A stretch of DNA of 64,000 bases from Oikopleura dioica. Taxonomy: Eukaryota; Animalia; Chordata. The notes under the pieces are model-generated. The model saw only the letters and a list, made by a program, of their open reading frames with translations. It made no database searches and had not been told where the DNA came from. Positions 12,169 through 46,851 of this stretch are shown piece by piece. The position numbers and the translations under genes were made by a program. Position 1 is the first letter of the stretch. Each line of letters begins with the position of its first letter. The stretch lies in assembly GCA_907165135.1 (NCBI GenBank), contig OU015570.1, positions 2,067,929-2,131,928 of the forward strand, in the 5' to 3' direction.

Positions 12169-12209
12169 AAACTAAAAATTTTACCTTTTATATTTTGCGC
12201 TAAAAGTGT

Positions 12210-16939: not shown

Positions 16940-16959
16940 ATTCTGATTTGACAGGAATT

Positions 16960-19846: not shown

Positions 19847-20149
19847 GTTAGTGAGCCGCCAAATTATCAAAGGCAGAAGAGAGGGCAAAGAGTCAAAGGC
19901 GCCACAGAAATGATAACAGTCGGCACAGGCTTTCTCTTAATCGGCAGTTTTCTCTCAGCAGAATTTGACCTTGGGAACATCCGGTCTTTGATAAACATCG
20001 GAATGTGGCCTTTTTTCGTAATTTGGTATTCGGGCGCCATCAAGAAACGAACCCAAACCAAATCTCGAAAATACAAATCTGACGAAATGTTTTAAAAAGG
20101 GAAATCTTGAACCTAGATTTGAATTTTAAAAGATGCATTATGGCTCTTG

Positions 20150-20590
20150 GAATTTTGATTTTTGCAAGCTTGCTTTTTGCAAACTTGCTCTTTTGAAAGT
20201 TTTTGAAGATTTTAAAACGGCTCTTTTGAAAGTTTTCGAGTCGACTCTTTGGAACATTTTAAAACGACTCTTTGCAAGTTTTCGAGACGACTCTTTGCAA
20301 GTTTTCGAGACAGCTCTTTTGGAAGTTTTCGAGGCAGTTCTTTTGGGAATTTTGACGCAGCTCTTTTGAAAATTTCGACGCGGCTCTTTGGGAAGGTTTT
20401 CGAGGCAGCTCTTTTGGAAAGTTGACCCTTTCGCACAGTTTCAAGCTCTATTTTCGCTCCGTTTCTAGCTCTATTATCTAGCTCTATTTTCGCTCCGTTT
20501 TCTAGCTCGAATTTCCGCTTTAGCTCTAGTTTTGGCTCAATTTTCAACACTAGATTTTTGCTCCGTTTTCTACTTTTACTCAACTATTTG
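20150..20590. repeat. Degenerate ~23-bp tandem array (gctcttttgaaagttttcgagac) followed by tctagctc repeats
   Basis: About ten degenerate copies are visible; intergenic. Confidence 0.75.
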
Positions 20591-20724
20591 CTCCAACTCT
20601 CTCGACCGCTCGACTCAGAAATGCAAGACTCGTAAATGCAATCAATATCAAATAAATCGGTTGCATTTTATATTAAAGATAAATTGAATTTATTTTGAAA
20701 ACAGACTCCCGTGGAGATAAATCC

Positions 20725-21519
20725 GTTAGTTTCGTCGCTGCAGAACAATATTGTTCTTGAAGGCGGTCACACGCCCATTTTCGTCTTTGACGAGGATCAA
20801 CGCCCTTACTTCTCCATTCGCCAATTCCTCGCGAAAGTTGTTGTGGTTGAGGTAGATCTCGGCGATGTTGTTCTTGAGGGCGACCAGCTGCTTTTGGAAG
20901 GGGGTCGCGTCGGCCGGAGCTAAATTATTAAATTAAAGCATTTGATGATAAATTTACCTTTGTGGGGCGGCTCGACGTAGTTTTCGATGCGAAAGATTCG
21001 CGGAGTGTTGAATTCGGTGGGCCGGCCCAAAGTTCCATCCCGTCGGTATGCCCGAAGGACAATGTTGCCCTGCTCGCCAATCTGACCGTTGTCGTCGGAG
21101 CGGAGCTCGGTGTAGGTGCCGTTGTCGTTGGTGGAGTTGCCGTTGGTGGAGTTGCCGTTGGTGGAGTTGCCGCTGCCGTTGAGGACGGTGGCGTTGGGAG
21201 AAGGGCCGGTGCCAGTGGCGTTGAGGGGCTCGACGCCAGAAATGGCGCTCACGTTGGCGCCGCCAACAAAAACGCTCTCGTCGGGAGCAACAACGCTGCC
21301 GCCAGGTACGGTGACGACAGATCGGTTGGCCGGGGTGGCTGGCGCGACGATGGTTGTTTCGCCAGGGTCGGCGCCAACATCGACTTCGTCAAAGACGGTG
21401 ACGATGGAGCCGTTGAAGGTATTGCCGGTGCCGTTGGGAGAGGACGAGTTGCCGTTGGAGGAGGAGGAGTTGCCGTTGGAGGAGGAGTTGCCGTTGGAAG
21501 AGGAGGAGTTGCCGTTGGA
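20725..21519 (-). CDS. 5'-truncated Asn/Ser/Gly-rich protein with many NxS/T sequons
   Basis: Frame of ORF 20920-21252 extends to ~21519 through (SNGNSS)n; intron ~20920-20957; last exon ends ...NNIVLQRRN*. Confidence 0.5.
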
Positions 21520-22019
21520 TTATGAAAGAAAAACCACTTAATGACCCTAAGTTTTTACTCTTCTTCTTCAACCTCGCGAACAAGCTCAGCTTGCGCCCAA
21601 AAAGAAGTTAATTTAATCGTTAATTGATTCCTTTTTTAGAAAAAATGATCGCTAATTAATACAACTTTGAAAAAAAGTCCGGAAATTTGGACAATGGTCG
21701 ATTTTGTAGTGTCCCACTAAGATGCCTTAAGGATATAGCCTTGAATATTGAACTTTCGTAGCGCCGAATCCCTGTTACAAATTTATTCATTTTTCAAAGA
21801 AACCCTACCTAAAATACAGCGTAGATTTCGAAAATTCCTTTATTTTTAGTACTTTCTATAGTGTTTATACCTAAAAATCGACTTCAAAATAAAACAGACC
21901 ATTGTTCTCTGAAAATTCCCATTAAAAAGGTAAATCTGGATTGATGATATGAAAGATTGAAGCCTTATCTCCAATCTAGCGGTGGATTTTGTAAAAATAT
22001 TGAAGATTATGGCTTCTAG

Positions 22020-22357
22020 TGTTGTAATATGCTTCCTCATTTATGACTTCTATGTACTAAGCTAAGTTCCTGCTAAGTAAGCATACTACTTTTGTATTGA
22101 CGGTAATTCGGTGTTTATTTGTGATTCTGGGGCAAGGCCAGAATGAGGAAAATGGGCATGGTCAGGCACTTTTATAGGAGCGCTCGCTCACAAGTCTCAC
22201 TTCGAGTTCGACTTTATTTCTGAGCTGCAGTTCCGAGTTGAGTGATGAGCTCGCGCTTCGCAGTTGGTGCTCGCGCTCGCCCCTCAGCTTCGGATTCTGT
22301 GAGCTTGGCTCGAGACTCAACTTTCGTTTTTGTAATCATAAGTTATGGACCATAACA
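22020..22357 (-). repeat. 3' LTR (338 bp)
   Basis: No difference from 45451-45788 seen by eye; minus-strand TATAAAA and AATAAA inside. Confidence 0.95.
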
Positions 22358-22730: not shown

Positions 22731-23258
22731 TTACTTGAAGTTGTTTTGCTGCAAAGCCATCGTAAGAAATGCCATCCTTGAGCATCGGCAAAGTATGCAT
22801 TTTCTTGTAAGGCGAGCGAATTGTACGGCGCATTCAGGATGAAAGGAGTGAAGACAGCGCAGTGTTACTGTGGGGTTACCCTTTCGACAAATCGGGCATA
22901 AACGGCCGTTTGTATGATTCTCCATGTGTGTGGTAAAGAGACGAAGTCCCATCGAGTCCCAGCAAGCAGAACAATGATCATATTTTTTGCATCGCTCAAG
23001 GAAGCAGTTTATGTGAAGAAAGTGCCCACATTTTGCTTTGATACCCATCTTCATACTTGATTCACAGTCTCGCATTGAACAAATAACGCAGACTTCGTCA
23101 GGGTTTGGCGTTACTATTCGGCATCCTTCGACGAAAACGAACATGAAAGTTGTTGTAACGAGCCAATTGATGGGTGTTTCTTCGGCTTTTCTATTGACAG
23201 AGCTCGTTCTACCGGCTCTTTCAAGGCGACCACTCGAAAAATCGTTTCTGCTACTCAT
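22731..23258 (-). CDS. Tandem RING-H2 finger protein (putative E3 ubiquitin ligase), intronless
   Basis: CVIC...CGHFLHINC...CSAC and CPIC...CLHSFHPEC...CILC: two complete C3H2C3 patterns. Confidence 0.85.
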   Translation of the reverse strand: MSSRNDFSSGRLERAGRTSSVNRKAEETPINWLVTTTFMFVFVEGCRIVTPNPDEVCVICSMRDCESSMKMGIKAKCGHFLHINCFLERCKKYDHCSACWDSMGLRLFTTHMENHTNGRLCPICRKGNPTVTLRCLHSFHPECAVQFARLTRKCILCRCSRMAFLTMALQQNNFK

Positions 23259-25288
23259 GATCTGAATCAGAGTTCTAATAGTTTCTGTCAGCTAACAATA
23301 ATGGATGTCTTTAACAGCTGAAAATTTCATCGTTTTAGCTATGTTTCTTCAAAAGAAGAGCTTTTAGCAAAAACTGTATAGAAAGAACTATTACAGTAAA
23401 AATTTAGTTCGCTTTCCGTGAAAAAGCGTTGTTGTTCAGAATTTTGTTTTTAAATGCCGTTAATTCATGTTTTAGAACAGAATCTGAATATATATCCTTA
23501 TTTTTTAAAGCTCATCTATCATGGTATTCCTTTTTTTTTTAAGTGAGCCCATAAAATTGAACTTACAGTTAATCTTTAGCGTTGAACTACAGGAGGATAG
23601 GTTTTATCATAATAACAATCTTCTTTTTGACTTTAACGCGAGTTTTCTTTGTGAAAAGAAACACTCGGCGAAACTTTTAAAAGCGTTGATTCTTTTAGTT
23701 CACATGTTCTGATTTCCATCAGATTTTCGATAAAGACAGACGTAAGCTAAATAATTTCAATTATGAACCGTTATGGGCTTGTTTTTTCAAAGAGGAAGAA
23801 AAAGGGAATGAATGAAAGTACTATTTTAATGAATATTTATCTTAAGGGTACGGCTATCGATTTTGAAAGGGGCTTATTCTGATTGTTGAAAATACTTTGT
23901 CGTTTCCTAAATTTAAGGAGGTTCCGTCAGTTTTTGGTGAATTGAGTCTCGTGCGGACCAAATTTTCGAAAAAATCTGTATTAAGGCTAGTTTTTATTAA
24001 ATTAAATGATCTAAGGGGATAAAGTCCGATAAAGATTATTAATTTTGCGCTTTCCGAAAATCAGGTTCGTGCGGATGAAATTTTGTGGCGACACCCTTAG
24101 TCGATTTTACTTGCTGTTTCGAAAAAGTATCAGACTTTGAATTTACAAAGTCGATTTTCGGCAATATTTGAGATTGCGCTCGAAAGATTTTTTTATAAAA
24201 ATTTCTACCGTCACCTGAGCTACAGTCGAAATTCGTAACGAAGAATTTAAAATCGATTGATTCCAAAGCGGGGGTGGGGTTCCTTAAGTCAGAAATTTCC
24301 AATAATTGAACATTATTTTCATCAATGGGTATTCTGATTGGTTCCGAGAAACAAAGATCAAGTTAAGCCAATCGATTTAATTGAAACCCGTGATCTGCGC
24401 TAGAATTGACCCTTTCATAGTTATTCGAGCGTTACGGTGGTGTTCTTCACTACTGTTTGCTCCAAATGATTTTATTGGCCGTAAAATTTTGAACTTCTCG
24501 TTTTCCGCCTTGACCTCTTTATTTTTATGGTTTCTGCCTGAGCGCTTCAACCGAGTTTCTGAATTTCAGAATTTCTCATTATAAAAAATCGGTCAAAAAG
24601 AAAGGCCGTGAAAATGATTTTTTCAAAACTAGAGGTTTAAAGAAGAAACGCAAAGAAAGAATAAGATGGAAGACGAATTTTTGAAAACATCTAAAGTAAG
24701 TCGGGAGCAATTCTATTTAAGCGCATTTTCGGACTAAGTAAAATTTAAGGGTTTACATTCCTTTTAGATTTTCCGGATTTGGCATTTTCCGAAAATGAAA
24801 ATTTCACGAATCAAAGATTACAAATTATCTTACTCCAACCTTTAGTTTCATTCAAACTAAAAGGGGCGACTCTAAAATGGCCAATAAGAAATTCATTCCA
24901 TAATTTGGGCTTAAATTTTCTTAAATCCAATGCAACTTAAAACCCAAGAATTTATTTAAAAATCGACCGAACCCAAAGGGTTTTGCGCTCATAATTAAAG
25001 TAAGCCTCCATCTTTAAGGATACCCCTTACAATTTTCCATTGAACTACGACTCCCGATTCGAATCGTCATTTCAAATATTCGGTTCTAGAAGATCAGCAG
25101 GGGACAAGCACTCGAAAGCAAAAATTCTCCAGGTCACGTGACCTTCACGAGTATTATTTTAAATAAATAGAATCGTTTGATAATCCCTAAAACCTGGAAT
25201 GAGCAGAAATATTGGGCACTAGTTAAGATTTATGTTACCGTTAATGCGAACTTTTTCTTGGCTTGATTTGGGTGGGTCAAAAGTTATT

Positions 25289-25900
25289 TACCATTGGTCG
25301 AGAAAAATATAATTTTCACCAAAATTTCCAAACTTATTTTTTTGTTTTCTCTATACTCTAGATGTGTTCTAGAGGTCCTAAAACCCCCCTTTCGCCAGAA
25401 AAAACCACGTGAAGCAAAGAAAAAATCGATTTTTCGACTCGAAAACTCGAAAATCGGAAATTTTCACCAGCCCATTACTCATCCTTATCGATGAGTCAGC
25501 ATGATGAATCATACCTCATTAGATAGCTCAGAGTCTGAACTTGTACGGACCGTTGAGAAACCGGTGCGGACTTCAACCGGTTGGTCACACGGTAAGGTTG
25601 AAAGTTGGTCAATTTTCCGAAATTTCAAAAAATGCCCATCTTCAAGCGATGATTACTCATACTTCCTGATCACTAATTTTGGCCAGTATATGGCCACTTA
25701 TGGTCGACTTTGGTCAAGTTTGGCCGGAGGACCCCGGAGGACCTCCCTGGTGGAAGACCATCCGCTGGAAGACCAATACTTAGTATTTCAATATATGGCT
25801 GTGCTCGGCCAATTAATGGCCACGTATGGTCAAATTTGGTCTCGTTAGGCCGAAAGTCCTCCGGAGGACCTCCCTGGTGGAAGACAATCTGCTGGAAGTC
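25289..25900 (+). repeat. Left TIR with ~120-bp internal repeats
   Basis: The same spurious ORFs (MVEKNIIFTK..., MMNHTSLDSS...) occur on + here and on - at 39166-39657. Confidence 0.92.
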
Positions 25901-26049
25901 CAAAATTAAATAATGAAATAAAATGCTTGCTGGGCTAAGAATTGAAATCTTCGGCAAACTCTGGTCACGAGAACATTAGAATCATATTTTGCGACTGTTC
26001 TAAGTTAAAAAAACATTTATTTCGACAAGAAGAAAAATCAAAACTCATA

Positions 26050-26780
26050 GAAATAATGAAGTTTGAAAATCGGAGTAGAACTTTGACGTTCCAGGTCGAT
26101 CATAAGAACTGGTTCCGTTGTTGGTGTATGAAGAATAGCCGGCTCTCTGGAATCGCTGTCAGCATATCCAATTCCATCGGTACTGATCCCAACTACCCAA
26201 GAGCTTAGAAAAAGGATGCGCTTTTTTGACTATGTTAAAATCTTATATTTTGAGCTATTAAGGTATCATACATGTTTCTAACATTTCAGCGCAGCCCAAC
26301 CTATCGCGCTCTGAAAGTGGAGCTATTTTTCTCAAGATTTTTGTCTCTGTTCGAATTGGAGCTTCGGTAGCTATTGTGATAACGGAATCTTCGGAGTTAC
26401 TAAGTCCATTTGGGAATTTTATGACTGACGCTATTTTGCCAAATTTAGCAAAGGAGATCCAGCCCTATATAAGCTCTGCAAGATACGAATTCCCTTTTTT
26501 TTTAAATTTAAATGGATGATTGACGAGATTGAGACTTCACTTAGCCTGCTTTGTGTCGAGCCTAGTCCTTATAGTCCCACAGTTCGGGATGGATTTCAGA
26601 GTCTTCACAGATTCGGTTAATTGTTAACTTTGCCTCAGTGAAGATGTTGTTCCGAACTGTAAACTTCCGAGCCGCGGCTATTGAATGAAGTCTACTATCA
26701 TTTCTCTCATTGAGCTCATCGTCGGATGAAATCGATTCAGGATGCGAATAATTATAAAAATCGTCTTCACAACTGCTCAT
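26050..26780 (-). CDS. Orphan multi-exon gene, divergent from the Env-like gene, possibly degraded
   Basis: ORF 26562-26780 (MSSCEDDFY...) followed by further exon-like segments; 3' end uncertain. Confidence 0.35.
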
Positions 26781-27070
26781 TTTTGGTTTTCTCGAACTGA
26801 AGCTTGAAATTTTTTTTTTGTATTCTATGGCTTTGGCTTCCTTTGTTTCAATAAATGGTCATGGTCAAGGCATTAAAATTCATAAATGCAAAAAAGATTC
26901 GGATTAAAAATTTTGAAACTTCAACAAATCGAACAACAGACAAACCAGAGCGATAAAGATTAAATGTGAAAAAGAAATTCGAAATTTCTGAAACAAATAA
27001 ATTAAGCTCGCTGTCATAAGGATATGATTTGATGCATGTTTTTCCAAAATTAAGAATCGAGCGCTAGAAT

Positions 27071-27188
27071 TGACGTCAATGCAAATTGCGCGCTTTGTAC
27101 AAAAAAATGGATCGCCACGATTGCTTGATTTTAAATTTATGAAAAACTGTAACGGTGCCAAAAAATTATCAATTAGTCGGGTATAAAA
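27071..27188 (+). promoter_or_regulatory. Putative promoter of the Env-like gene (CRE-type TGACGTCA and TATAAAA)
   Basis: TGACGTCA at 27071-27078; TATAAAA at 27182-27188, ~40 nt before the ATG at 27225. Confidence 0.45.
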
Positions 27189-27224
27189 GGGTGACGGCTG
27201 ATTTCTATCTTCATCATTCTAGCA

Positions 27225-30200
27225 ATGGGGCTTAAAGCAATCATTTTCATATTGCTGCTTGCCTCCATCTATCTTATTCAACGTGACAATTTCCGTATAG
27301 TTAGAGAAACTTACAAAGAAATTTTTGAAAAAGAGAAACCAAATCAGCGAAGTCGAAGAGAAATTGATGACGAAGACTACGCAGAATGGCTTGCCGTTAG
27401 CTCAACACATCCAGCTCCTAGCGAAAAATCACCAAAACCTCATAAGATTCTTCTATCAAATCAATTTTCGCTCAATGGCACGGTTTCAAATCACAAAATT
27501 TATACATTTAGGGAAGGTTCGATATCATTTAAATTGAAGTTTTTTCTTTTTGAGAAAAGACAGGAAATTTCAAAAATCGTTTATTCATCGATATTGAACT
27601 CTAAGAAGTGCTTTACATTCATTTGCATTAAAAATGAAAATTGACACTCCTATACCTGAGACGTCGAAAAATGATGAAAAGGTTTGTTATTTCTGTTGAT
27701 ATAACGTGCTACCTGAATTTTTAGCTTCTAAAAATACCAACTCTACTCTCAATCATCAGCGAAAAACCCGCGATTTTGGCGAGCTTCTTATTTCAGCGAA
27801 CTGAAGATGGTTTAAAACACTGCGCACTCAATACTGGTATTCCATCAGATGTTTACAAACGCGTTCTCAGAATGATTATGGTGGAAAAATGCGCAAAGGT
27901 TACTCATGACTATAAACCTTCTCTTATAAGATTAAGATGAATGATTTTGAAAAAACAATACACGAGTCGATTAGAACTAATATGGTTGACCCATCTGATC
28001 CATGTGTCGCGGCTTTGATTCACGCAGTGGAAAAGACTCTTAGAAGTTTAAGCCGTGAACATCGTGCTTTGCCAGAAAATTTCCAGGATTTTGTTACTTC
28101 AGGATCAGGGCGGAAAAATCCTTTAAAAACAATGATCAAAAATAAGAAAATTTTTCAAGCTCTTTCAGCACTTTACAATTATCAAAGTCATTCAAGTTAT
28201 TGTGCGACGATCTTCAACTCTTTTCGAAGTTACAAGTCAACTCTAAATATAGATTCGGTCAACAACGAAGACTTTTCCCGAGAAGATGAAGTATAAATAA
28301 GTATTTATTTCAAATAATTAACAAAATTAGTACCTCGGACTCACTACACAGCAACTCAAGTCTCTCGCTTTGCTCATTGATCATTTTGATCATCAACACA
28401 GGTCGTGATTAAATAACATTTAAATAATATTTTTATTTAAACTTCATATTTTTAAATCATCACAGACTCCTTCCGAAAATTGTCTTTCGAGAGTTTCTTT
28501 TCACGTTTAAAACTGGAAGTCGTCGTCAGAGAAGACATCTCTTTTTATCGGGCAGTAATTACTGGAGAATCTCAAATTTACAGAAAGAAATGAAAGGATT
28601 TCAAGCATATGGGTTCATCTCTAATGATTTATTTATTTTATAAGGTTTAATTCATGTTCAACCCATTCAAGATGCTGTTGACTCCGCAATAAAAACAACA
28701 AAAACAAGTTTATTCCAAATCACAGGATCGGGTCGACTCGCAGTTAATCTTTATGTTTGTTCTTGATTAAGTTTCATTATTTTTATATTTTGCCACGATC
28801 CTTTATCTAGATTCTGTGGAAGCAATTTCATCTTCTCTTGATTTTTTCGAGACGAGATCTGCCGTTCGACGAGGTTATGATGACAAAGAAGCATTTTTCT
28901 CCTGTCTTCGACAGCAGGGTCAATTTTGTCATAGCCACTCAAGTTTCCAAAGTTTAAAAAATGTACTTAACTTTAAAAAATAGATTATTTTTATGCATAT
29001 TAAAAGTTTACTTTTAATAAATTTAATCAAAAAATATTTAAACAAGATAAGACATTTTATGGCACTTTTGTATGCTTTTTGTGTCGGATCGAATCCTTAT
29101 TCTGAAGACAACTGCATAGGTTGTAAATTGCCTTATTTATTTATATAATAAATCTATTAGATTTGGTGGATTCTGACTTGGTTCGAGTCTCCTATCAGGG
29201 TGCATCGATCAGCGAAGAGTAAGAATTCAATTTTCTCGTAAATTTTTAAATTTATTAGTGATAATTCAATGGATGCTATCATTGATCTGGAAATTCAAAT
29301 TCCTCTAGACTTGAAGGCTTATTACCAAATAAATTTCGAGTATCTGCCGATTCTGACGCGAATGGGAAATTATGGAATAGTCAAGGACAGTTTGAAATTT
29401 AATTCAAATTATTTTAATTAAAATCGAAAATCGATAGAAATGTTCTTTGATTTGTTTTTTTTTTTATCAAATTGTACTAAAGGAACCATGCTTGGAGGTA
29501 AAAACAATTTATTATCTTTCATTAAAAATTGAAGGACCACATATTTGGAGTTAATGAAACCAAGGAGGGATCAAAGGTGACCAATTTTAAGAAAAAAAAG
29601 TAATTATAGAAGCTCTGACAGTTCTCTTTAAATTATTTTAGTTGTCGAACAAGCACTTGTCATGGGTCATTTACCTTCCTTTGTAATGATGCAGACAAAA
29701 TATACGGATTAAATGAAGATTCTCAGAGTTTGCCAATTTGCTCTCGTCCTCTTATCCAGGTATTTAAAAAACATGATTCCGTTTTTCTCCTTTTTTTATA
29801 TCATAGACGGAGGTGCATTCATATCACGACAAGACGTGTATTGTGACAACAGAAAATCGTGTTCTTAAAGCCGAGGGAAAAAATCTTGTCAATGTCGCCC
29901 AAGAAGATGGAATAACCTGCCTTCCCCATCATAGATCTATTTCTTACAGTGTAGAGTAGGGTCAAAAATCTTCATTCTTAAACATTTTCGGTTTTTATAT
30001 TTCATCTATCTATGATGATTATCAAGATAATCTGACCCGTTTGCAAAGCCGTTGGTGATATGACCGTTCAAATTCCCTCACAACAGTTTTTGTCTCCAGA
30101 AATTTATTTTAGGTAAATCCTTCTTCAGCATTAGACAGATTGCCTTAATTTTACAAAGCTTGGACCTCGCCACACGCTTCGCTTCACAACAAACAAATTA

Positions 30201-30730
30201 TCTACAAACGCTTATTGAGTCAATTGAAGCACCTGAATTCACTTCTTGGTCAACATTTTATGAAAACGGTTAGATTGTTGTAAAATCATAAGATATAAAA
30301 TATTGATTTAGCCAAAAACATCAGTGTTTTCTCGCCGAATCAAATCTTCAGTTTTCTTGAAAAAGGGACGAATAGTGCGCTTCATGCTCTTTTTCCTTCA
30401 TTCGGCGACTCATTTCTCTCTTCCAAATTTCGGAGCATTTTAGTCAAGATTCTTTCCGTTATCTTGATCTATGTTTTTATAAAGGCTTGGTTCCAAAGAT
30501 TTAAGACTTGTTTAGAGATAATTAAACAGCAATGGGAAACCAATTTAAAGGAAATCATCAAAAAATTGCTATTTAGTATCATATTCTGAGCTAGATCTTC
30601 TGTCAAATTTTCTTTATATTGAATGCTTCTCAAGTAGTTGAAACATGACCTTAATGTGATGTTTTTCAGATGCTTGTGTTTCTCGTTTTTGCTTATCTCT
30701 TTTGGCAGTATAAATCGAGGAAAAAAAATG
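27225..30730 (+). CDS. Intron-rich class I fusion (F/Env-like) glycoprotein region: signal peptide to TM
   Basis: Signal MGLKAIIFILLLASIYLI; RSRR (27348-27359); RRQRR|HLFLSGSNYWRISNLQKEMKGF (28521); LLYAFC...NC; IIDLEIQIPL...YYQINFEYLPI (29278-29352); CRTSTCHGSFTFLC...C (29643-29759); heptad-like LDLATRFASQQTNYLQTLIESI; TM IFCQIFFILNASQMLVFLVFAYLFW followed by KSRKK. Confidence 0.7.
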
Positions 30731-32265
30731 GTCCTATTAGTCTTCGAAGTCTACGAGGTCGAGGAAAATCATATATCGGCCCCTTTTTTCAATTTAATGA
30801 TCAATGCGCGACATGTGGATACTTACAGACGAGACAGCATAATTGCGTACCCCTGCAGTGTTGCAGAAATATTTATAATAATATAAATTCGTACAATGAG
30901 TATGTCTCATAATGAATTTCATTTATTCATAAAATTTTAGTCACATTCTTCATCATCACAGACACGATCTTATTGTCGAAGAACAAGTCTATCCTGATAC
31001 CAAGAAAAACTTGGATAATTTTAAAAAAATGCACAAAAGGACGGTATTATCATCATATTTAAAAAGAGATATTTTTGTTATTACCTTGACAAAGCCGGCG
31101 ATTAAATCACTTCTACTGTGATGTCTGCGACGCTGTTTTCAAAAGATCAGCTGTGAATAAAAAGGAACATGAGGCATGCTGCCAGGGGATAATTTGTGAA
31201 GTATGTAAAACACGTATTCCGAAAAAATTCTTCGATGATCACAAAAATTTCTGCAAAGAGTAAGTTTTTTTTGTACTCGCATGATCTTACATTATAAGAG
31301 CTCATTCACCACTGCAAGAAGAGATATTTCCAGATGAACCTGATGACGATGTATTTCTTGATGATTCCGATATTGAGAAAGGACGAATGGATGTTGACAA
31401 TAAATCAGATTCATCAGATGACGATATAACAAAAGAGCTTGAGAAAACTGCGATAAACAGCCAAAGATCCGCGCAAAGCAGACTCAAGTAAAAATATGCA
31501 ACTAGGTTAAAATCACGATTGAACTAGAAAAAAAATTCGAGAATCAACGAACTCATTGACTGGCGAATACGACGTCCAAGCATCGTCTCTAAATATGAAT
31601 GTGGAGCTTAAAAGAAAGAAAATTCAAGATTTGAATCTTACGATTGAAGAGCTTTCGTATGCCGGTCTTATTCCATTCGATCGAATCATGGAGCAAATGG
31701 ACAATCTATTTGAGGCACATGGAAATTTGGCTACACGAATCGTTTTAGCAACCGCATTTGGAAATCAAACAGAAGATTCTCAGAAATATCTTCTGAAATT
31801 TATAAAAGAAGATTCTGAATTCTATTTGAGGTTTACGCCTATCCTTAAAAATTATAAGTTAAAATTAAGCAAATATCGGATTAAACGAGCAATCGAAGAT
31901 TCCAATTCTTTAAAGAACAATCAACCGATTGAGCGTCTTAACAGGGCCGAAAAAGTTCCTGAAGAGCTTCAAATGAAAATATTCATTGCTTGGCTTGAGG
32001 CTTCAGGAAAGAAAGCAAACATTCTCCATCTTTTCAATTTTGGAGTAATTTTGTTGCCTTTAAAAGTTCCAATTCCAAGAGGAAGAACATCTCTTAAGAA
32101 AATAAGTCTCCTGAGTAGGCCCGAAAAGCAGATTCTTCGAACAGTTGGCTTTACAGAACATGTGAAGGAAAAGACGAAAGAGGTGTATGCTGAGACAACC
32201 CAGGAAGGGATAATGCTTCTTTTTTTATTTTATATTGAACAATATCTTTTCAATCAAATCAATTT

Positions 32266-32488
32266 GGCTGATCCTATTTTCAGTAGATTTTTTTCTGGAC
32301 CTATTTTTCAAATCGATTTTTAAGGGTGTCAGGGGCCTTCCGGCCCCTTCAAACCCTGATAAAAACCCGGCCCGGGACCCAGGCTTTCTTTTGGTCCAAG
32401 AAGACACCCTTAATTATTATTCTAACACCCTTAAAAATCGGTTTGAAAAATAGGTCCAGAAAAAAATCTACTGAAAATAGGACTTGCC
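32266..32488. mobile_element. MITE with 9-bp TSD (MULE/Merlin-like), intronic
   Basis: ~65-bp TIRs; aatcaattt duplicated at 32257-32265 and 32489-32497. Confidence 0.88.
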
Positions 32489-32712
32489 AATCAATTTTTA
32501 TCCAAGAAAAGTATATTTGCGTAGCGACAAAAAAAGAATGCATTCAGAAAATACAAGAAAGTGTCTGTGAAGAGCTTTCGCAGTATCTTTGCGTAAAGTA
32601 TAAACCGTTCTTCATTTTTTTCAAAAGGTACAATCTCATAACAGATTTGTTAATAAATTTAAAGTGAGCATGGATTCTGGAAAGATCAATGCTTATGCGA
32701 ATGGTTTCTTAA

Positions 32713-33225
32713 GGGTAAAACATCAAATCGGAGCGGCGCGCCACGCTGGATCAGCGCCCCGCCGTGACCTACTTTTCAAAGGGCCTTAACCTCTGAACGG
32801 ATGAACTTTTTTCAAATTTTGTTTTGGATTAAGATAATTGAAGCCTTATCTCGTCGCTTACTGAAAATAAGCGAAGTCGTAAACTTAGAAATGGAAAAAA
32901 CTGACATAAGTCATTCTAAGGATCATATAAAATTCTAGAGACCTTCAAAATTCGATCTGAGACAACGAACATTTAGTTCAAACGAAGTTCGTATAAAAAT
33001 TGTGAGAGGAGATTGATTTTAACCAACTTATGTCAGTTTCTCCCACTTTTTAGTAAACGATTTCGCTTATTTTCAGTATGCAAAGAGGTAAGGCTTTAAT
33101 TTTGTCAATCCAAAAGAAAGTTTTAAAAAAAGTTCATCCGTTCAGAAGTAACGGCCCTTTGAAAATAAGGTCACGGCGGGGCGCTGATCCAGCGTGGCGC
33201 GCCGCTCCGATTTGATGTTTTTCCC
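32713..33225. mobile_element. MITE, TTAA TSD, long TIRs, inserted in a transposase exon
   Basis: ttaa|gggtaaaacatcaaatcggagcggcgcgcc ... ggcgcgccgctccgatttgatgtttttccc|ttaa. Confidence 0.9.
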
Positions 33226-35211
33226 TTAAGTTTTAAAAAATTTGAATTGGTAAAATCAACATAAAAATGCGTGAATTGCTTCCAATCAAGAATAAAGGTA
33301 AAGATTCATATTAACCATATAATTTAATCTTATATCGAATAATTAAGCCGAAAACATACGAGTCAGTCACTATAGACAAGAATCAGAAACAAAAAAAAGA
33401 ATTGTGCATGTCCCGAAGGGATCGCCAGAAGCTCTCTTCACGTATGAAGAATCGTATCAATTTATCTTGAAGACAATTATAACAGGTATTTTATGAAAAA
33501 ATGAAAATTAGATTCTTAAAATTTGATAATAAGCTCTACAGTCGATTTAAAAAAAATTTAAAGGAGCATACCATTTTCCCGATAAGTCAATTGTACGCCT
33601 CGCAGATTTAAAGGCGACGGCGATCGCTCCGAGAAACGTGAACAGAAATATGCTTTATCAAAGGGTCTTAAATCTTTTTAGTGGGTAAAATTAACTTAAA
33701 ATACATTTTGTTTTAAAATTTAAAACCCTTTGAAAAGTGTGAGCTGGATTATGGGCTTGGCGTTTAAGATAAGCTGACTTTATCGAATTTGAGTTTTCTT
33801 AGGCTGATTATCCGCCCTTTTCAGAACAAATTTTTCCATCACAAGGGCGAAAAAGACTCAATCAAATCATCTTGCAGCACCATCTGTCTCCAACCTTTCG
33901 GCAATTTTCTATTTCTACGATCTTAAAAGTGACAGCTGGAAACGACTTCTTGTGTCTGCACTAAGGAAAAACTATGAAATACAAAGGAAAATAAGGACGA
34001 TTATCATTAACTTTGAATAACTTAATCATATTTTATCAAAGCGAGACAAAATCCTATTATGATACAGTTAGAACAATTTTGCATGGAATCGACATCATAG
34101 TTGCTGACAAAGAAATAAGAACAATTTACAAGTATAGCTATATTTTTTATTTATTAATGTTTTTGAAGCCACATCATCATCAATGTGGATAATTGCAGAA
34201 GAGAGTTCAAGGTCGAGTTATAATAATAATGATAATTTATCAATTTTTTGAAATTATTTTTATAAACTCTCAAAGAATAGATGGGGTCTACCATCCATGA
34301 AGGCTCTTCCTCATCCTGTTGTGGCTATTTTTAAAGCTGCTTTACGACCGGATTCATAAAAATGAGTGTAGATATAACCATATATTAAGAGTTTACAATT
34401 ATGAATCATTTTAAGATGGAAAATCGCTTATTGTTAAGGGTCCTTCGATACAAATTCAAATATAATTACAAATTTAATTATTTGATTTTATGATTCTCTG
34501 TTATAACGTATTCGTAAGGACCATTGATAAGACTCTTTTCATTCTTTTGTTCCAGGATTGTAATTAAAGAACTTATGAATATCATTTATGAGTTTTATTT
34601 AAATAATTAGTCTTTAAGAAAGACTATTTAATTTAAAGTAGCGACTGCAAAAGAGCTCAACAGATTGGAAAGAGGTTACACACTACAAATGCTTATTGAA
34701 GAATTAATATTGAAAGAGCAAAGGGCATTTCTCCAGCGTCAAAAAATAACGTCAATCCTTTCAGGCAAGGGATAACGAAACATGCTCATTGTATTTACGT
34801 CTTGCTTATTATCCCTAAAATAGACGTTATTTTTTAAATCTCGATATTGAAAAATTCGATATGAAATACGAAATCAGTGAAGGAACACAAAGCAACGATG
34901 CAAGAATGATCGCGTTAGATAAAGAAAATAATCGGCTAAAATTAACGAACCACTGGGGTCGGCAAGTGGACGGCTATTTTTTAAGGGGTTCGATCACGAC
35001 TCAAACTATTAGAAGAGCTTAAACTATTAAAATGATTCATGTCCAAATGCTGACCCCAGTTGAACTGGTTATGTTCCTGTTCTGATTGTCTCAACGGCAA
35101 TTTTAACAGATGTCTTATTCAAGAAGGGTGGAATTTTTACAAAATGAGAGAAACTCAATTTAATACTTCTCTTCTATAAACATAATACTAGTATAAAATA
35201 TCCGCTTTAAA

Positions 35212-36584
35212 GACAAAGCTGTACGATTCTCTTCGGATATTAAAGAATCGCGAGTGCCCGTTATCAAAAGTTCAAATGAACCGAAGGATATGTCTGCTCC
35301 CGGTCCATCATTTATCGACCATGAGGATTTATTTGATGATGTCTGGGATTTTCAAGAAGATAAAATAGAGAATGATGCTGATGCGCAGCCTAAACTTGAA
35401 GAAAATTTGGTTAATGTCACCCTTATTCCAAGTCAAGGGTTTCCGTTCACAAATCAAGACAGATTAGATTTCCTGATACAAGAAAAAAGAAAAAGATTGA
35501 GTGATTTTGAGGCGAATCGAATACTTAAATATTTCGAGGTTTTACCTACTAGCCATGTATTTTTACATTTAATTTTATTTTAGCCGAATAAATCCGTTGG
35601 CGTTCATACGCTAGACGGGATTTTGATGAGGTTTAATTCGATTGCTGGAGAAGATACTCTTATCGTCAAAACAACCCAATTTGATGTGTTGTATAATTTC
35701 GGCGTTTTTGGAACACAAGCTTCTTTTACTGATATCGCAAGAGAAAACAACAAAAATATTAATCATGTAAGCGGTCATATCTAAGCATTAAATATTTCTG
35801 ATCAAAATTTTAGGTCAAAAATATACTTATGCCGATTTTCTTCACAAACGAGAACACAAGTAAAAATCATTTCTCTCCAAATCGATTGCGCCTCACAAAT
35901 GAAATTGGTCATTTTATTCTGATCGGTTTTGACATAGAAAACGACGTAATTCTTTGTTTCGATCATTCCAGACAAACGTCGACGAGAGCTTGGGAACTCT
36001 TGATTCCATGGGCAAGACGCAGTTTCGAGCAGGTTTTATAGTATAAACGTTTCTTGGTTTTTTCAAACAAAATTTTTTAAATCAATTGAGTTCATGAAAG
36101 CGTAAAGAAAGCGAAAAACACTATAAAACCTGCTCTCTGAAAATCTTTATGGAAGAAACGCGGAATGTGTCGAAGTTTTGGGACAAGAACAATTCGCGAA
36201 TGATTGTGCGATTCTTTTGATAGCGAATGCAGAAGTCAGGGGATAAGATTTAAAAAATTAAAAGGCGGATTTTGACAAAATAGCGCCAAAATTTTGGTTG
36301 GGCAATTTGTACTTCTATTATTAAAATTTATTATCGTTGATAAAATTTGTAAGATTGGTTTGACTTCAAAGCTAGATCCCCGTTTTCAGTTTTTATATTC
36401 AATCGTCAGGTGATTATAATTCTATATATACCCTATTTGGGGCATTCTTGATTTAATAACAATTTTAAAGGTCGCTTCTCGTGGTATTTCTTTTACTCAG
36501 GAGACGACCAATTCCCTACGAATTCGACTTAAAGATATCTGGCTTACTAACATATATCGCAAAACATGTTCTTTTGTCGAATAA
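35212..36584 (+). CDS. Ulp1/SENP-like (clan CE, family C48) cysteine protease domain, multi-exon
   Basis: RLSDFEANRILKYF; YLMPIFF; GHFILIGFDIENDVILCFDHS (His 35910, Asp 35961); QEQFANDCAILLIANAE (Cys 36205); FTQETTNSLRIRL; stop at 36582-36584. Confidence 0.8.
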
Positions 36585-36739
36585 AAATATCTGTTTTTCT
36601 TTTTTAATATAAAAATAAATCTCTACTTTTAAAAGTACAAGTGGCTATTGTTTCTCTTTATTATTAAAAATTCTACGGTATTCTAAAAAAGTAAATACAG
36701 TACTAAAAACAAATACTAAAAATACTAAAAACAGTAAAT

Positions 36740-37527
36740 TCACTTCCCCTTTTTCTCGAAATATAAAGGATAAATAAAACCTTCCATTTTTTCGCTCATC
36801 CAAGGCGTCTTCTCTTCTTCTTTGTCCGAGAAGTCTTCATCATCGAAAGTGATTCCCATTGGCATCTTTTAAAAAATAAAATCGGATAAATTGATTATTC
36901 CCACCTCATCAAGAACAATCAAAACAGGACAATTATTTCTGTCAGTATTCACATTTGTTAAAATTTTTTTGAAGATATTTTTGGAAAGGTCCAATTGCTT
37001 CTGGTACCATGGCGGAATTGACCAAGGTCCTACTGTTTTACCAAAGCTGTCCTCGTTTTTGGAACGGTAACAAGTAGAGAACTTTCTTGGAGGGGAGTAT
37101 TGTTTCCATTCATCGAAAGTTCCTAAATTCCGATAATAACTTTAAATGAGTTTAATTTTTTAAGCTTTTACCTATTTTTATTGTTTTGTTTGGTTTATTC
37201 TTGAGGATTATTTCGGCCAATTCTGTTTCTCTTGTATAGTCCCAAGCCCCTCTGACATAAGAAATAAAAAAAATTTCTCTGCTTTTCTTCCCTGCTCACT
37301 CGCGCAAGAATTGTAGTATCCATTAAAAATTCGACGCATGAATTTTCACAACGAGCCTGAATTTTTGAAATTTTTTTCCAGATGAGGTCAGAGTCATCAT
37401 AGGCTATTCGAAATTCCCCCAATAAAGAGAAATGAATGAAAAACAAATCGCAGATTATAGTCTGGACTTGGCGATCTGTGTAGTAAACCTTAGTAGAGTT
37501 CCGAAGAGCGTTAATAAAAAGTTGCAT
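36740..37527 (-). CDS. Orphan multi-exon gene
   Basis: ORF 37195-37527 plus downstream exon-like segments bounded by short AT-rich introns. Confidence 0.45.
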
Positions 37528-37879
37528 TGTTTTAAGAAATATTTTTAATTTAATTAAAGCTTAGAGGTTTCTTCCAAATCCGATATAAATTTGCTAAGAA
37601 TGTTCTTTATTCTCCGATTTTTGAAGAAAAGTGTCTTTTTATTTACGCTCTAATAATTCTGCCTTAGGTTTTCTGCAAAAATTACCAAGACCAGTAGAAA
37701 ACATGCTATTGAATTGGCAAGAAAATTCGAAAACGCACTAGGTCTCCTCATCGGGCCTATGGACTTTTTCCAGGAAAAAATAATACGATGCAAGACAGGG
37801 ATCTTAATTTTTTATGCAAAAACTTCGGAATTGCAATGCGATTGCAATATTTTTACGAAAATTTAAAATCCCTGATGCC

Positions 37880-38702
37880 AGCGTATTTTATGGGAGACAG
37901 GAGTTCAAAATTATGCAGAGTTTGTTCTCCTCGAAACGGCACGAGAAATGAATGATGGGAGCATCAAACGCAGGTTCTCAATTGCGTCAACTGAAGTTGG
38001 GGACATACTTATTCCTGATGAGAACTGGCGATCAAACGAGAATACGCACATACTGTCTCATATCTAGGGCCGACGCGTAAAAAATCAACCCCCAGAAAGC
38101 ATCAAGGTAGAGAGCTGAAACAACGTGATATAATGAAGTTCGACCCTACTAAAAAAATTGCTATTGAAAATTTTTTGGTTTGGTCACGTGGTCACGTGAT
38201 ACAGACCTCCGAAAAACTAAAAAAAGCTTGACGACCTTGAACGCATGATCAAGGTCGATCAGCTCATATCTCAGAAGAAAGAGCTAAAAAAGTTATTCTT
38301 ATTAATATTTTTGGTGGCGCAATCACGTGAGACAGTAGAAAGGAAAAAAGATGACCCTGAATTCAAGGTCGTCAAGCTTTTTTAGCTTTCCGGAGGCCTG
38401 TATCACGTGACCAAACCAAAAAATTTTCAATAGCAATTTTTTTAGTAGGGTCGAACTCCATTATGTCACGAAGTTTAAGCTCTCTACGTTGATGCTTTCT
38501 TGGGGTTGAATTTTTACGCGTCGGCCCTACTCATATCTACAAATTAAAAGATCCGACCCTTATGCTTAAGGATGCCATGATTTTGAAAGGCCACTGGACG
38601 CCAGCCCGATTGACGCAAAAAATAAAACAAAAATTTGAAGAGGAAATGAAGAACATCCTTGAGGAGATCGGAGAATACTTGTCGACAGAAAATGAGGATT
38701 AA
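37880..38702 (+). pseudogene. Orphan ORF interrupted by a hAT MITE
   Basis: Removing 38065-38529 and one TSD gives an open frame ...NYAEFVLLETAREM...HILSHI|YKLKDPTL...EYLSTENED*; 5' end unclear. Confidence 0.5.
38065..38529. mobile_element. hAT-type MITE
   Basis: TIR tagggccgacgcgtaaaaa; 8-bp TSD ctcatatc (38057-38064, 38530-38537). Confidence 0.92.
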
Positions 38703-38969
38703 AAATTGTCATTCATTATTTCTGTTCAAATTGTTTTTTCTTTTCGGTTTTTCATCTTCGTTCTTAAATACTTGTTCATTTTTTTGATAAATATATGTTT
38801 GTCTATTGAGATTTTCTTAATTTGAATGTGGTCTGTTCTGCAGAAATTTGAAGTATCAACACTTTTTTCGCAGGCACTTGCGACCGACCGATTTATTGCC
38901 GCACCGGTTTAGTATTTTTTCTAGAAAGAACAGATATTAAGCTTCTTATCAGTTAACCTTTTGAAAATA

Positions 38970-39662
38970 CAGCCTGACTAGACCAATATTGACTATAGGT
39001 GGCCATAAATTGCCCGAGCACAGCAATCTATTGAAATTCTAAACATTGGTCTTCCTGCAGATTGTCTTCCACCATAGAGGTCCTCCGGGGGACCTCCGGC
39101 CTGACTAGACCAATGTTGACCATATGTGGCCATAAATTGGCCGAGCACAGCCATATATTGAAATTCTAAATATTGGTCTTCCAGCGGATGGTCTTCCACC
39201 AGGGAGGTCCTCCGGGGTTCTCCGGCCGAACTTGACCAAAGTTGACCATAATGGCTATATACTGGCCAAAATTAGTCATCAGGAAGTATGAGTAATCATC
39301 GCTTGAAGATGGGCATTTTTCGAAATTTCGAAAAATTGACCAACTTTCAGCCTTACCGTGTGACCAACCGGTTGAAGTCCGCACCGGTTTCTCGACGGTC
39401 CGTACAAGTTCAGACTCTGAGCTATCCAATGAGGTATGATTCATCATGCTTACTCATCGATAACGATGAGTAATGGGCTGGTGAAAATTTCCGATTTTCG
39501 AGTTTTCGAGTCGAAAAAATCGATTTTTTTTCTTTGCTTCACGTGGTTTTTTCTGGCGAAAGGGGGGTTTTAGGACCTCTAGAACACATCTAGAGTATAG
39601 AGAAAACAAAAAAATAAGTTTGGAAATTTTGGTGAAAATTATATTTTTCTCGACCATTGCTA
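38970..39662 (-). repeat. Right TIR with ~120-bp internal repeats
   Basis: Reverse complement of the left TIR. Confidence 0.92.
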
Positions 39663-41623: not shown

Positions 41624-42367
41624 CTATTTAGTCCATGTGAAGGTTTTTCGAACTGCAGTTTTTAATTGACTGAAAGTGATATCATCATCGTCAATTCCAA
41701 GTAGGCGTGTCATCTCAGCGTATTCTTGTTGATTGCAGTTCTTCATTGTCATAACCTGAAGAATGCAAACCGCTTCGGTGGCCCTTGGGTCCTTTCCTGT
41801 TGTTGTTTTGTATTTCGAGCAGAGACGCAAGAAGAACCGCATAAGCGTTTCATTTTGGCCGCGAGTCATCCTCAGCACATCCGTTGCCGTCGCTGATCTG
41901 GAGGGACCCAGAAGGGCTCCGACGGAATCCACAAATGATTCGAAGTCTTTGCGTTCGCTATCTTCTATGATTTCGTCGATGTAACGATCTCGAGGTCGAA
42001 GCGTCATGATGAGCAAGTTCATCATCTGTTTGTCAGACAGCCCTGACTCGCGAGCGTATTTGAAAGCACTCTTGTTTCGGTTGAAATGTTCCCAGAACGT
42101 CAGGTTCGGCTCAGTCCAATTCCGAAGTCCATATTTTTCCGGGCTTGATATGATGACTTTGTCGGGATCCCGCTTCGGCAATTCTGTTCCTTTGTGTCCT
42201 TGCTCACCGTCTGAGAGAAAGGTGTTCGTCTGAGTCCCTCTTGTGTTTGTTCCGCTGGTTTCAGGCTCAGGATCAGTGAGCGGGACATCGAGGTTAGTCT
42301 TGGTAGATTTGAATTCGTTGTTTCGAGAAGACATTTTTGGGTTTCGCAGTCTAAATAAGGAATCCAT
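41624..42367 (-). CDS. gag: Gag-like capsid protein of the non-autonomous LTR element
   Basis: Sense to the element; MHR-like MTRGQNETLMRFFLRL; helical CA-like pattern. Confidence 0.6.
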   Translation of the reverse strand: MDSLFRLRNPKMSSRNNEFKSTKTNLDVPLTDPEPETSGTNTRGTQTNTFLSDGEQGHKGTELPKRDPDKVIISSPEKYGLRNWTEPNLTFWEHFNRNKSAFKYARESGLSDKQMMNLLIMTLRPRDRYIDEIIEDSERKDFESFVDSVGALLGPSRSATATDVLRMTRGQNETLMRFFLRLCSKYKTTTGKDPRATEAVCILQVMTMKNCNQQEYAEMTRLLGIDDDDITFSQLKTAVRKTFTWTK

Positions 42368-42568
42368 AGTTAATATGTCTTTTCTTCCCTTCTGTTAATC
42401 TTTGCAAGCCTTAAATTTTGTGAAAGCAGTGACGTTTAACTGTTGCAAATTGTGGAAGACGAAGTTCTTTGTTGATAAGCTCGGTGCTTCTGAAGCCTTT
42501 TTAGCTTAATGAGGTAGTTAGGCTTAATAATTAGTGTTAAGTTACATTGATTGTAACACTTACTCATG

Positions 42569-43141
42569 CTATCCCCGTCGGCGACTCAGTTTTTCAGGAA
42601 GCTTTGCCGAAAGGGGTATTTTACGCGTATTTGATCTTGTCGGGAAGGGGAGGTTTCTTTGTGGCTGGCCATTGATTGCGAACGCTCGTTGTACCCGCCG
42701 TTGTTCTCGCTGCGCTTCGTATTCAGATGCGAATTGGCGGATTCGATGGTCAGTTGTACGACAAAGCTCACAGTTATCCAGGTTAGAATTGACCAGCACA
42801 GACCAGGTCCGTTCATTGTTGATTTTTCTAAAGAAAAACCTTGCCGTTTGCTTTTGGGCTGCGTAAAGAGAAATGTAATTCGTCCGGATGCGGCGAAATT
42901 CAATTGCGATGATAAAATGCCATTCTAATAGCTCATCAAGCGTAGTTGGCGCAGGGCTGGTTTCGAGGATTCTTTCAAGATTTCTCAGAGCTGTTCTTGG
43001 TGAATAATTTGGCAGGGCTGAAGAGTTAGCCGTTCTTTGAATCATCACTACGATTGAGCCGATAATTCCGTCACTTTCCGATCGATGGCCAATCGGGTAT
43101 CGTTTGCCGGCGAGTGCGTCGGGAATCAATTCGAGATACAT
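42569..43141 (-). CDS. Hypothetical 190-aa ORF upstream of gag
   Basis: Intact ORF, sense to the LTR element; no recognisable motif. Confidence 0.45.
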   Translation of the reverse strand: MYLELIPDALAGKRYPIGHRSESDGIIGSIVVMIQRTANSSALPNYSPRTALRNLERILETSPAPTTLDELLEWHFIIAIEFRRIRTNYISLYAAQKQTARFFFRKINNERTWSVLVNSNLDNCELCRTTDHRIRQFASEYEAQREQRRVQRAFAINGQPQRNLPFPTRSNTRKIPLSAKLPEKLSRRRG

Positions 43142-43589
43142 TTGTTTTATTCAATTCGTGACGTTGCTGCCTTGGTCCACACTCATTATTTCTCGTCTTA
43201 ATTGTGTTGCAATCGAATCTAAATATGATCAATTGTCGAGATTTTCCAATAGCTCCGCTGACTCTTTAATCATCGAGCTCCGCCGAGGTTTTCACGGAGG
43301 AGGTGCACTATTGGCTGTTAATCAAGGGCTTAGCCGAATGCCAAAGCTAAGACCTAAAGAACACATTTTTACGTAGGAAATCGAGAAATTCTGGCGGAAA
43401 ATAACAGCGTATATGCGTTTTGAGCAGAATCGATGTTTTCTTGTAAACAATTTTCAAACCTTTCTTTTTTTTTTGGCGAAAATTTGGGAACTCTGCCTCT
43501 AATTACAGCTAAATTTTTGTTAAAGGCAATTTTGGTTAATTTTGAGCAGAGTTTTGCTGACGGAGGAGCAAAAATACATATTTAAGTTG

Positions 43590-44870
43590 GCCCTTTTGTC
43601 AAAAATCGAGAACTTCGCTTGAGGCCGCAGCCAAATTAAATCGAGACCGGCCAAATTTGGCAAAAATCAAGGGCTCCGCTTGAGGCCGGGGCCGAAATAA
43701 CTTAAGATAGGCTAATTGGCAACAAAGTCTAGGGCTCCGCCGAAGCCAGCCCAAAAATCAATTTGAAATGAGCCTTTTCTGCAGAGCTCCTTCGGGGCCC
43801 GGCCGTAAAACGAGTTAAGATGGGTCTTCTTGGCATAACTTCTGCATGGCCCGGCCAAAAATCAATTTAAGATGGGCCTCTTTGGCAAAATTCTGCAGGG
43901 CTCCGCCGGGGCCCGGCCGAGAATCAAGTTAAGGTCTGCCTTTTCGGCAAAAATTCTGCAGGGCTCCGCCGGGGCCAAGCCGAAAATCAAGTTTAGATGG
44001 GCCTTTTCGGCAAAAATCCTGCAGGGCTCCGCCGGGGCCCGGCCGAAAATCAAGTTAAGGTGGGCCTTTTCGGCAAAAATTCTGCAGGGCTCCGCCGGGG
44101 CCCGGCCGAAAATCAGGGTTAAATGCGCCTCCTCGGCAAAATTCTGCATGGCTCCGCCGGGGCTTGGCCGAAAATCAAGTTAAACTGGCCTTTTCGGCGA
44201 AAATTCTGCATGGCTCCGCCGGAGCCTGCTCAAAAAATAAGTTTTAATGGGCCTTTTTTTTGGCAAAAAAATTGGCAGGGCTCCGCCGGGGCCTGGCCGA
44301 AACTCTATATAAATTGGGCCCTCTCGGCAAAATTCTGCAGGGCTCCGCCGGGGCCCGGCCGAAATTCAAGTTTAAATGGGCCTTATTGGCAAAAATTGGC
44401 AGGGCTTCGCCGGGGCCTGGCCACAATTCTATAGAAAATCGGCCTTCTCGGCAAAATTGGGCAGCACTCCGTCGGGGTCCGGCCTTAAATTAAGTTTCAA
44501 ATATGCCTTCTCGGCAAAAATTTGCGCAGGGCTCCGCCGGGGCCGCAGCCAAAAGTCATTTTCAATACGCCTCTTTGCTAAAAATCGGGCAGGACTCCGT
44601 CGGGGTCCGCCTTAATTTAAGTTTCAAACTTGCCTTTCTGGCAGAATTTGCGCAGGGCTCCGCCGGGGCCTCGGCAAAAATCAAGTTTAAATACGCCTTT
44701 TGGCAATAATTGGGCAGGACTCCGTCGGGGTCCGCCTTAATTTAAGTTTTAAATAAGCCTTTTGGCAAAAATTGGGCAGGACTCCGTCGGGGTCCGCCTT
44801 AATTTAAGTTTTAACAATGCCTTTTCAGCAAATTTGTGCAGGGCTCCGCCGGGGCCTCGGCCGAAAAATA
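43590..44870. repeat. ~60-bp GC-rich minisatellite, about 20 copies
   Basis: Unit ggcaaaaattctgcagggctccgccggggcccggccgaaaatcaagttaagatgggcctttt, degenerating toward both ends. Confidence 0.92.
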
Positions 44871-46840: not shown

Positions 46841-46851
46841 TAGTATGTAGT

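Follow-up and report, generated by a model that had tools for sequence, protein, structure and literature searches.

An envelope-like gene and a putatively membrane-anchored transposase-like gene in an inverted-repeat element of Oikopleura dioica

Genes and features of the element

The stretch of DNA analysed here, referred to as the window, covers 64,000 nucleotides (nt) of contig OU015570.1 of the chordate Oikopleura dioica (GenBank assembly GCA_907165135.1, positions 2,067,929 to 2,131,928 of the forward strand). Within it, a 14.4-kb element (window positions 25296-39655) is bounded by terminal inverted repeats (TIRs) with arms of about 650 nt, which enclose an envelope (Env)-like gene and a transposase-like gene. 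The reading preferred here, to which we give a probability of roughly 0.45, is that these are two co-oriented, intron-rich genes of one TIR element, the first encoding an Env-like protein and the second a membrane-anchored protein with zinc-finger, transposase-like and protease-like parts. A preliminary description of the locus had placed these parts in a single Env-to-protease polyprotein; their order along the plus strand is as it had claimed, and the joining of the two halves is taken up below. Coordinates of the features are collected in Table 1.

The locus had also been assigned to a TIR element of the cut-and-paste type, and the TIR element is confirmed: its arms are 94.7% identical over 619 nt, and the ATT found on both sides of 25296/39655 is likely a 3-bp target duplication, a call that draws on a single insertion site and the break points of a few related sequences. 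In those related RNA reads and contigs, likeness breaks off at 25296 or 25293 on the left and at 39655 or 39658 on the right. The element is likely a cut-and-paste DNA transposon. Its GC content is 35%, against 49% upstream. TIR-like ends that are about 80-90% alike (25296-25403 and 39494-39658) occur in several RNA runs labelled as the same species, suggesting that related elements or MITEs (miniature inverted-repeat transposable elements) exist in other lineages. A metagenome scan with the 21-nt TIR end returned three matches, all of them chance 23-25-mers with no likeness beyond. The RNA data comprise 8 runs of 24; they leave the interior of the element uncovered, and the four contig runs also miss a neighbouring host gene, so that they provide no test of expression.

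The genes have intron-exon structure and are real. Seventeen hand-picked introns have a mean GC content of 22%, against 38% in 74 exon tiles, and an intron-like score was obtained for 16 of the 17 introns (leave-one-out, simplest model; two of the training introns were shifted by one base) against 4 of the 74 tiles. In-frame introns by themselves were rejected as evidence, since antisense controls and shuffles yield them often; open 1.1-kb paths were present in 30 of 63 antisense controls when GT, GC and GA donors were permitted. GA-AG introns with an AG/GAA donor have been described for O. dioica and one copepod (PMC7072748). Together with the short introns and the surrounding LTR element, the GA-AG donors suggest an Oikopleura-like host.

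The model of the Env-like gene uses 15 GT donors, one GA donor and one GG donor and has no internal stops. Hydropathy of the 819-residue product, a predicted type I membrane protein, peaks only at residues 1-20 and from residue 761 onward, the signal-peptide and transmembrane (TM) calls being made by simple hydropathy, not by a dedicated predictor. The signal peptide and furin sites of the preliminary description were recovered in the form of this hydrophobic N-terminus and of R-x-K/R-R motifs ending at residues 45 and 356 (27348 and 28524, coding frame); across the plus-strand frames of 27225-30586 the motif occurs four times, against none in the antisense frames. Fourteen Cys residues precede the TM helix, three N-glycosylation motifs are present, and the tail is short: 35 residues and a stop follow the helix in the same exon. 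The frame from 30473 to the stop is open in only 69 of 2000 shuffles, and the helix and tail therefore look coding; the frame from 30551 is open in 814 of 2000 and does not discriminate. The predicted signal peptide, furin motifs, Cys-rich ectodomain and single TM helix form the layout of an envelope protein, and derivation from an F-type Env is probable. There may be a likeness to the F proteins of paramyxoviruses and baculoviruses around 29160-29390. Because its frame is open across 17 introns and it shares the low GC content of the element, the gene appears to have been resident for a long time.

This residence has to be set against another origin. The TIR element sits, in opposite orientation, within a long terminal repeat (LTR) retroelement that lacks pol (22020-45788), and its size and long TIRs are Maverick-like; the Env-like gene could thus have come from the surrounding LTR element or from a Maverick-like one, or could be an artefact of permissive splice rules, as the open paths in the antisense controls might suggest. 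These explanations are very improbable and already largely refuted. The gene lies on the strand opposite to gag and inside the TIR pair, on which grounds it was rejected as a part of the LTR element; its 17 predicted introns contrast with the intronless core genes described for Mavericks (bioRxiv 2022.07.12.499685); introns and exons are cleanly separated by composition; and a relative with 61% identity, described below, exists. No Pfam match to the Maverick proteins pPolB, packaging ATPase or capsid was obtained with the pieces scanned, which over 27231-36599 were those of the plus strand, and no open reading frame (ORF) long enough for any of the three is present.

The second gene would begin at 30670, where an ATG is followed by 12 hydrophobic residues and a basic cluster. 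Under either reading of the junction taken up below, this hydrophobic start and basic cluster predict a transposase-like protein tethered to the membrane, its body lying in the cytosol; none of 560 downstream 12-residue windows reaches a hydropathy of 2.4, which agrees with the earlier placing of a membrane-helix end immediately before the zinc fingers. From here to 32203, a 453-residue chain is open across three GT-AG introns and one GA-AG intron, and Pfam places a zf-met match in the zinc-finger-like exons just under the cut-off (E 5.6e-4). The previously listed introns 30551-30594, 30634-30669, 30900-30940, 31260-31298 and 31488-31527 are present and keep the frame. A GG donor near 31043, thought necessary at the time, is not needed, since a GA donor at 31040 (97th percentile) gives the same frame.

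Downstream, the gene model was read by eye (32200-36450), and in this reading the third catalytic acid of the DDE-like core was not located. The contexts of the two Asp codons and of the C-terminal CxCxxC motif appear Sola2-like by eye, with no match in searches. A HMMER search of 1.84 billion proteins with the read-through of 33808-36243, which contains about 50 residues of the core, returned one match by way of the linker exon: P0002 (E 2.2e-34), a 150-residue protein that forms a singleton cluster and comes from a 3328-nt contig. Its residues 1-15, 15-34 and 34-144 align to 34906-34950, 35063-35122 and 35209-35541, the last part with 61% identity. Since P0002 spans all three, the CxCxxC motif, the linker and the start of the protease region form one frame in this relative; the two gaps that separate them in the present copy are likely later additions, and a predicted transposase-to-protease fusion is supported. 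The frame of P0002 stops at the point where the copy has a GT intron. The 64-nt intron (35148-35211) earlier held to join the CxCxxC motif to the protease fares less well than the join itself: read by eye, the frame is kept only if the intron ends at 35212 (65 nt), whereas in the alignment with P0002 the gap falls at about 35123-35211.

In the cysteine-protease-like end, Asp lies 17 residues after His, by eye, and the spacing of His, Asp and Cys is suggestive of Ulp1; Gln residues lie 5 and 7 residues before Cys, the oxyanion Gln of Ulp1 being expected immediately ahead of it. A model of 73 residues of the protease region (pLDDT, predicted local distance difference test, 46) has the order strand-strand-strand-helix at low confidence, and a fold search with it gave no E below 0.001 and a best Z of 3.7, which is noise.

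Family searches returned little else. Pfam applied to 38 exon pieces and 18 read-through frames found only zinc-finger and RING matches and no Env, transposase or C48 family, and PHROGs applied to 18 pieces likewise gave none of these three. On single-frame pieces, neither Pfam nor HMMER matched a DDE transposase, and neither Pfam nor PDB sequence searches matched Peptidase C48. Word-indexed protein searches, each of one length band, yielded none of 2472, 3825 and 39 candidates, respectively; no relative came up in scans of metagenome and viral contigs; PDB sequence searches had 0 matches and Atlas searches no usable match. Single-sequence structure models reached pLDDT values of 36 and 46.

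Table 1. Predicted features of the TIR element and its setting (window positions)
Feature	Positions	Strand	Remarks
Env-like gene	27225-30589	+	predicted model; 819 residues, 17 introns; stop 30587-30589
Second furin motif	28524-28535	+	leaves predicted 462-residue (~52 kDa) TM-anchored piece
TM helix of Env-like protein	30437-30493	+	predicted; 19-residue hydropathy 2.27
Disputed junction	30443-30669	+	either the end of Env with its stop codon, or between one and three introns linking Env to the exon that follows
Predicted membrane anchor, or cytosolic half of TM helix	30670-30726	+	ATG, 12 hydrophobic residues (hydropathy 2.48), basic cluster
Zinc-finger-like exons, acidic linker, long helical exon	30670-32203	+	12 Cys in first 163 residues
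DDE-like core	33735-34359	+	Asp codons 33747 and 34188, by eye; stop 34357-34359
Transposase-like C-end with CxCxxC, linker, start of protease region	34906-35541	+	continuous in P0002
Cysteine-protease-like end	35500-36584	+	His 35910, Asp 35961, Cys 36205; last exon stop 36582-36584
Left TIR	25296-25938	+	ATT flank at 25293-25295
Right TIR	38972-39655	-	ATT flank at 39656-39658
Further predicted gene	26050-26860	-	intron-containing, divergent from Env-like gene; no family match
Further predicted gene	36760-37480	-	intron-containing; no family match
Further predicted gene	37660-38702	+	intron-containing; split by MITE with 8-bp duplication (38065-38529); no Pfam match above cut-off
MITE-like insert	32266-32488		9-bp duplication; in predicted intron
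MITE-like insert	32713-33225		TTAA-flanked; in predicted exon (exon read by eye)
Small TIR insert	34950-35062		missing from P0002; clear inverted ends
Gap relative to P0002	35123-35211		counted among small inserts
Small insert	36027-36135		perfect 16-nt inverted ends; within protease region, between Asp and Cys
Surrounding pol-less LTR retroelement	22020-45788	-	LTRs identical over 340 nt; CTAG duplication

The junction between the two genes

The ATG at 30670 lies 80 bases past the Env-like stop, in frame, and directly behind a TTTCAG acceptor at 30669, a sequence that we take to be suitable as a trans-splice acceptor. Operons resolved by spliced leaders are described as common in O. dioica (PMC7986045, PMC11067885). 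Two separate proteins would be made, from one transcript or two, the second arising by leader trans-splicing at 30669 or from a promoter of its own.

The competing explanation for this junction is that splicing yields an Env-transposase-protease polyprotein, in its most plausible form a minor isoform accompanying free Env, as Gag-Pol accompanies Gag. Two routes would give a single TM helix followed by basic residues and a cytosolic transposase: a 197-nt GT-AG intron at 30473-30669, which makes a single helix (hydropathy 2.76) out of the two hydrophobic stretches, or the short introns 30551-30594 and 30634-30669 with the addition of a third at 30443-30484, whose composition is intron-like. The exon at 30670 resembles the cytosolic end of a type I TM helix, and the donors at 30551 and 30634 are strong (92nd and 88th percentile), the former matching the AG/GAA consensus of GA introns (PMC7072748). 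Between 30589 and 30669 there is no poly(A) hexamer.

Nevertheless, such a polyprotein is unlikely. Of 400 shuffles, 87 contain a splice path ending at the 30669 acceptor when introns of 35-60 nt are allowed; the count rises to 307 if introns may reach 100 nt and to all 400 at a limit of 240 nt. Among all AG sites, the acceptors that fusion by short introns needs stand at the 62nd, 65th and 27th percentile, weak for this element, in which 15 of 17 training acceptors stand at or above the 70th percentile, and the ATG at the first position of the exon would have to be a coincidence. The exact path first proposed, in which introns 30551-30594 and 30634-30669 build the TM helix, is contradicted by the complete helix and 35-residue tail already present in the preceding exon; those two introns would add a second helix after the existing one and therefore leave the transposase on the luminal or extracellular side. 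With a path so common by chance, two TM helices, and an Env-like frame that has its own TM helix, tail and stop, the single polyprotein of the preliminary description is not upheld. Our judgement puts separate genes at roughly double the likelihood of a fused isoform; a strict Env-transposase fusion is unlikely.

Possible function and an alternative reading

If the two-gene reading is correct, the Env-like gene would be an old capture from the F-type env of Tor-like LTR elements, with its introns gained afterwards. The anchor would hold the transposase to the membrane bearing the Env-like protein, on its cytosolic face, excised element DNA might leave in fusogenic vesicles with no capsid, and the protease might either release the transposase or act on SUMO or ubiquitin, a sequence of events that is conjectural at every step. 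It is possible, if rather doubtful, that the element is a capsid-less, polymerase-less "enveloped" DNA transposon in which an F-type fusogen and a membrane-tethered zinc-finger/transposase/protease protein carry excised DNA between cells. The tether in that case may be the protein's own anchor or an alternative-splice fusion to Env, and the transfer may be, for example, from soma to germline. One of the three further genes of the element (Table 1) could be a matrix- or capsid-like partner. An element of this kind would be the DNA counterpart of Gag-Pol plus Env.

Envelope capture is known from LTR retroelements and from capsid-coding Mavericks; its pairing with a cut-and-paste transposon would be new, and no cut-and-paste transposon with an envelope gene was found in searches of the open-licence literature. 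Were the Env-like protein fusogenic and the transposase anchored, a simple DNA transposon would have a capsid-free route between cells, which would bear on the germline entry and species crossing of DNA transposons.

Several observations weigh against the two-gene reading, in addition to the strong donors and the missing poly(A) hexamer at the junction. Behind either furin motif, the first 20 residues have a mean hydropathy of -0.7, whereas F-type Env proteins are described as having a hydrophobic fusion peptide after the furin site (PMC13524379). Exon pieces and read-through frames, queries in which at most about half of the residues are real, gave no match to an Env or fusogen family. For an anchor, a run of 12 hydrophobic residues is short. 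The evidence comes from one copy of the element and one 150-residue relative. As no profile, sequence or fold match was obtained, the names Env-F, Sola2 and Ulp1 given in the preliminary description rest on motifs recognised by eye; the layout and the motifs seen by eye agree with them, while no search matched an Env, transposase or C48 family.

Some of these points, namely the absence of a fusogen match and of a hydrophobic fusion peptide, also suit a plain TIR transposon that carries a protease along with passenger genes, in which the hydrophobic start at 30670 is incidental and the membrane protein was captured as a surface protein or was once an Env, now used for receptor blocking or with no role in mobility. 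The element contains three more, unrelated predicted genes, and C-terminal Ulp1 domains of transposases are already known (PMC2836005). A passenger is nonetheless improbable, as the signal peptide, two furin motifs, Cys-rich ectodomain, single C-terminal TM helix and size fit Env, the open frame and shared low GC content suggest long residence, and a hydrophobic start such as that at 30670 is rare. Even if only a passenger, an Env-like gene whose 17 introns keep the frame would be an uncommon thing for a TIR element to have captured.

Comparison with known systems

Background to the classification used here is given in PMC4455052. Appendicularian LTR elements are described as carrying F-type env genes (PMC13524379), and the Env of Tor is described as a furin-cleaved membrane glycoprotein with products of 60-65 kDa, gp60 and gp65 (PMC4402516). 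The signal peptide, furin cleavage, Cys-rich ectodomain and C-terminal TM helix are common to the F-type Env of Tor and other errantiviruses and to the protein predicted here, whose post-cleavage piece, at about 52 kDa before glycans, would be close in size to gp60/gp65 of Tor. The likeness is one of layout. Unlike the Tor gene, the Env-like gene belongs to a TIR element, its strand carries neither gag nor pol, and it has 17 predicted introns. In Env-bearing Ty3/gypsy elements, env is co-oriented with gag and pol between the LTRs, whereas the gene here is antisense to gag and within a TIR pair.

For the second gene, the closest parallels are the Ginger1 and Mutator transposases, whose C-terminal Ulp1 domain is discussed as a SUMO or ubiquitin hydrolase and not as a polyprotein protease (PMC2836005). 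In both cases the transposase gene of a TIR element contains introns and has a cysteine-protease-like domain at its end; the present element differs in that gypsy-type integrase motifs were not recognised and in its 3-bp duplication, hydrophobic N-terminus and Env-like neighbour. Two acidic motifs and the C-terminal CxCxxC appear Sola2-like, and TIRs are present as well. The target duplication of Sola2 is described as 4 bp, AWWT (PMC3627910), while at the single site available here only 3 bp fit the flanks, which argues against Sola2 membership.

Nematode Mavericks are described as carrying the gB-type fusogen MFUS-1 together with pPolB, ATPase and capsid proteins in intronless core genes (bioRxiv 2022.07.12.499685). 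They resemble the present element in being TIR-bounded DNA elements with a captured fusogen-like gene and a protease; here, by contrast, all long coding chains are intron-rich, and pPolB, ATPase, capsid and a gB-type fusogen were not recognised. Teratorn, a fusion of piggyBac and a herpesvirus (PMC5601938), likewise joins a DDE transposon to viral genes, but it measures 180 kb and is largely virus-derived, compared with 14 kb and one Env-like gene here.

The surrounding element, small inserts and the rest of the window

The LTR retroelement around the TIR element contains a gag-like ORF (41624-42394), a 193-residue ORF (42569-43150) and a RING-finger ORF (22731-23291; Pfam E 1.1e-7), and no match to reverse transcriptase or integrase was found in it. 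Its identical LTRs would imply a recent arrival. Such an arrival is hard to square with the five or six small inserts of the TIR element, unless the latter moved in trans with its inserts already in place, and the copy is probably non-autonomous and mobilised in trans. The degraded state of the copy, noted earlier, is confirmed by these inserts. Those in predicted exons concentrate in the transposase-protease gene, whereas the Env-like gene has no recognised insert. The possibility of a MITE at the Env junction was considered and rejected, there being no convincing repeat at that place.

A tandem array with a unit of 62-63 nt occupies 43716-44865 within the surrounding LTR element, which is itself inserted in a MITE with arms at 21727-22020 and 45789-46291. 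A second stretch bounded by inverted repeats (46515-56680) holds another LTR element, with LTRs at 47723-47980 and 53953-54210 that are identical over 258 nt; it has an open gag-pol-like ORF of 1461 residues on the minus strand (49080-53465), with a 281-residue ORF behind it. On the other side of the window, 3268-21517 contains GC-rich genes with arrays of 12-, 15- and 24-nt repeats that encode low-complexity, mucin-like proteins.

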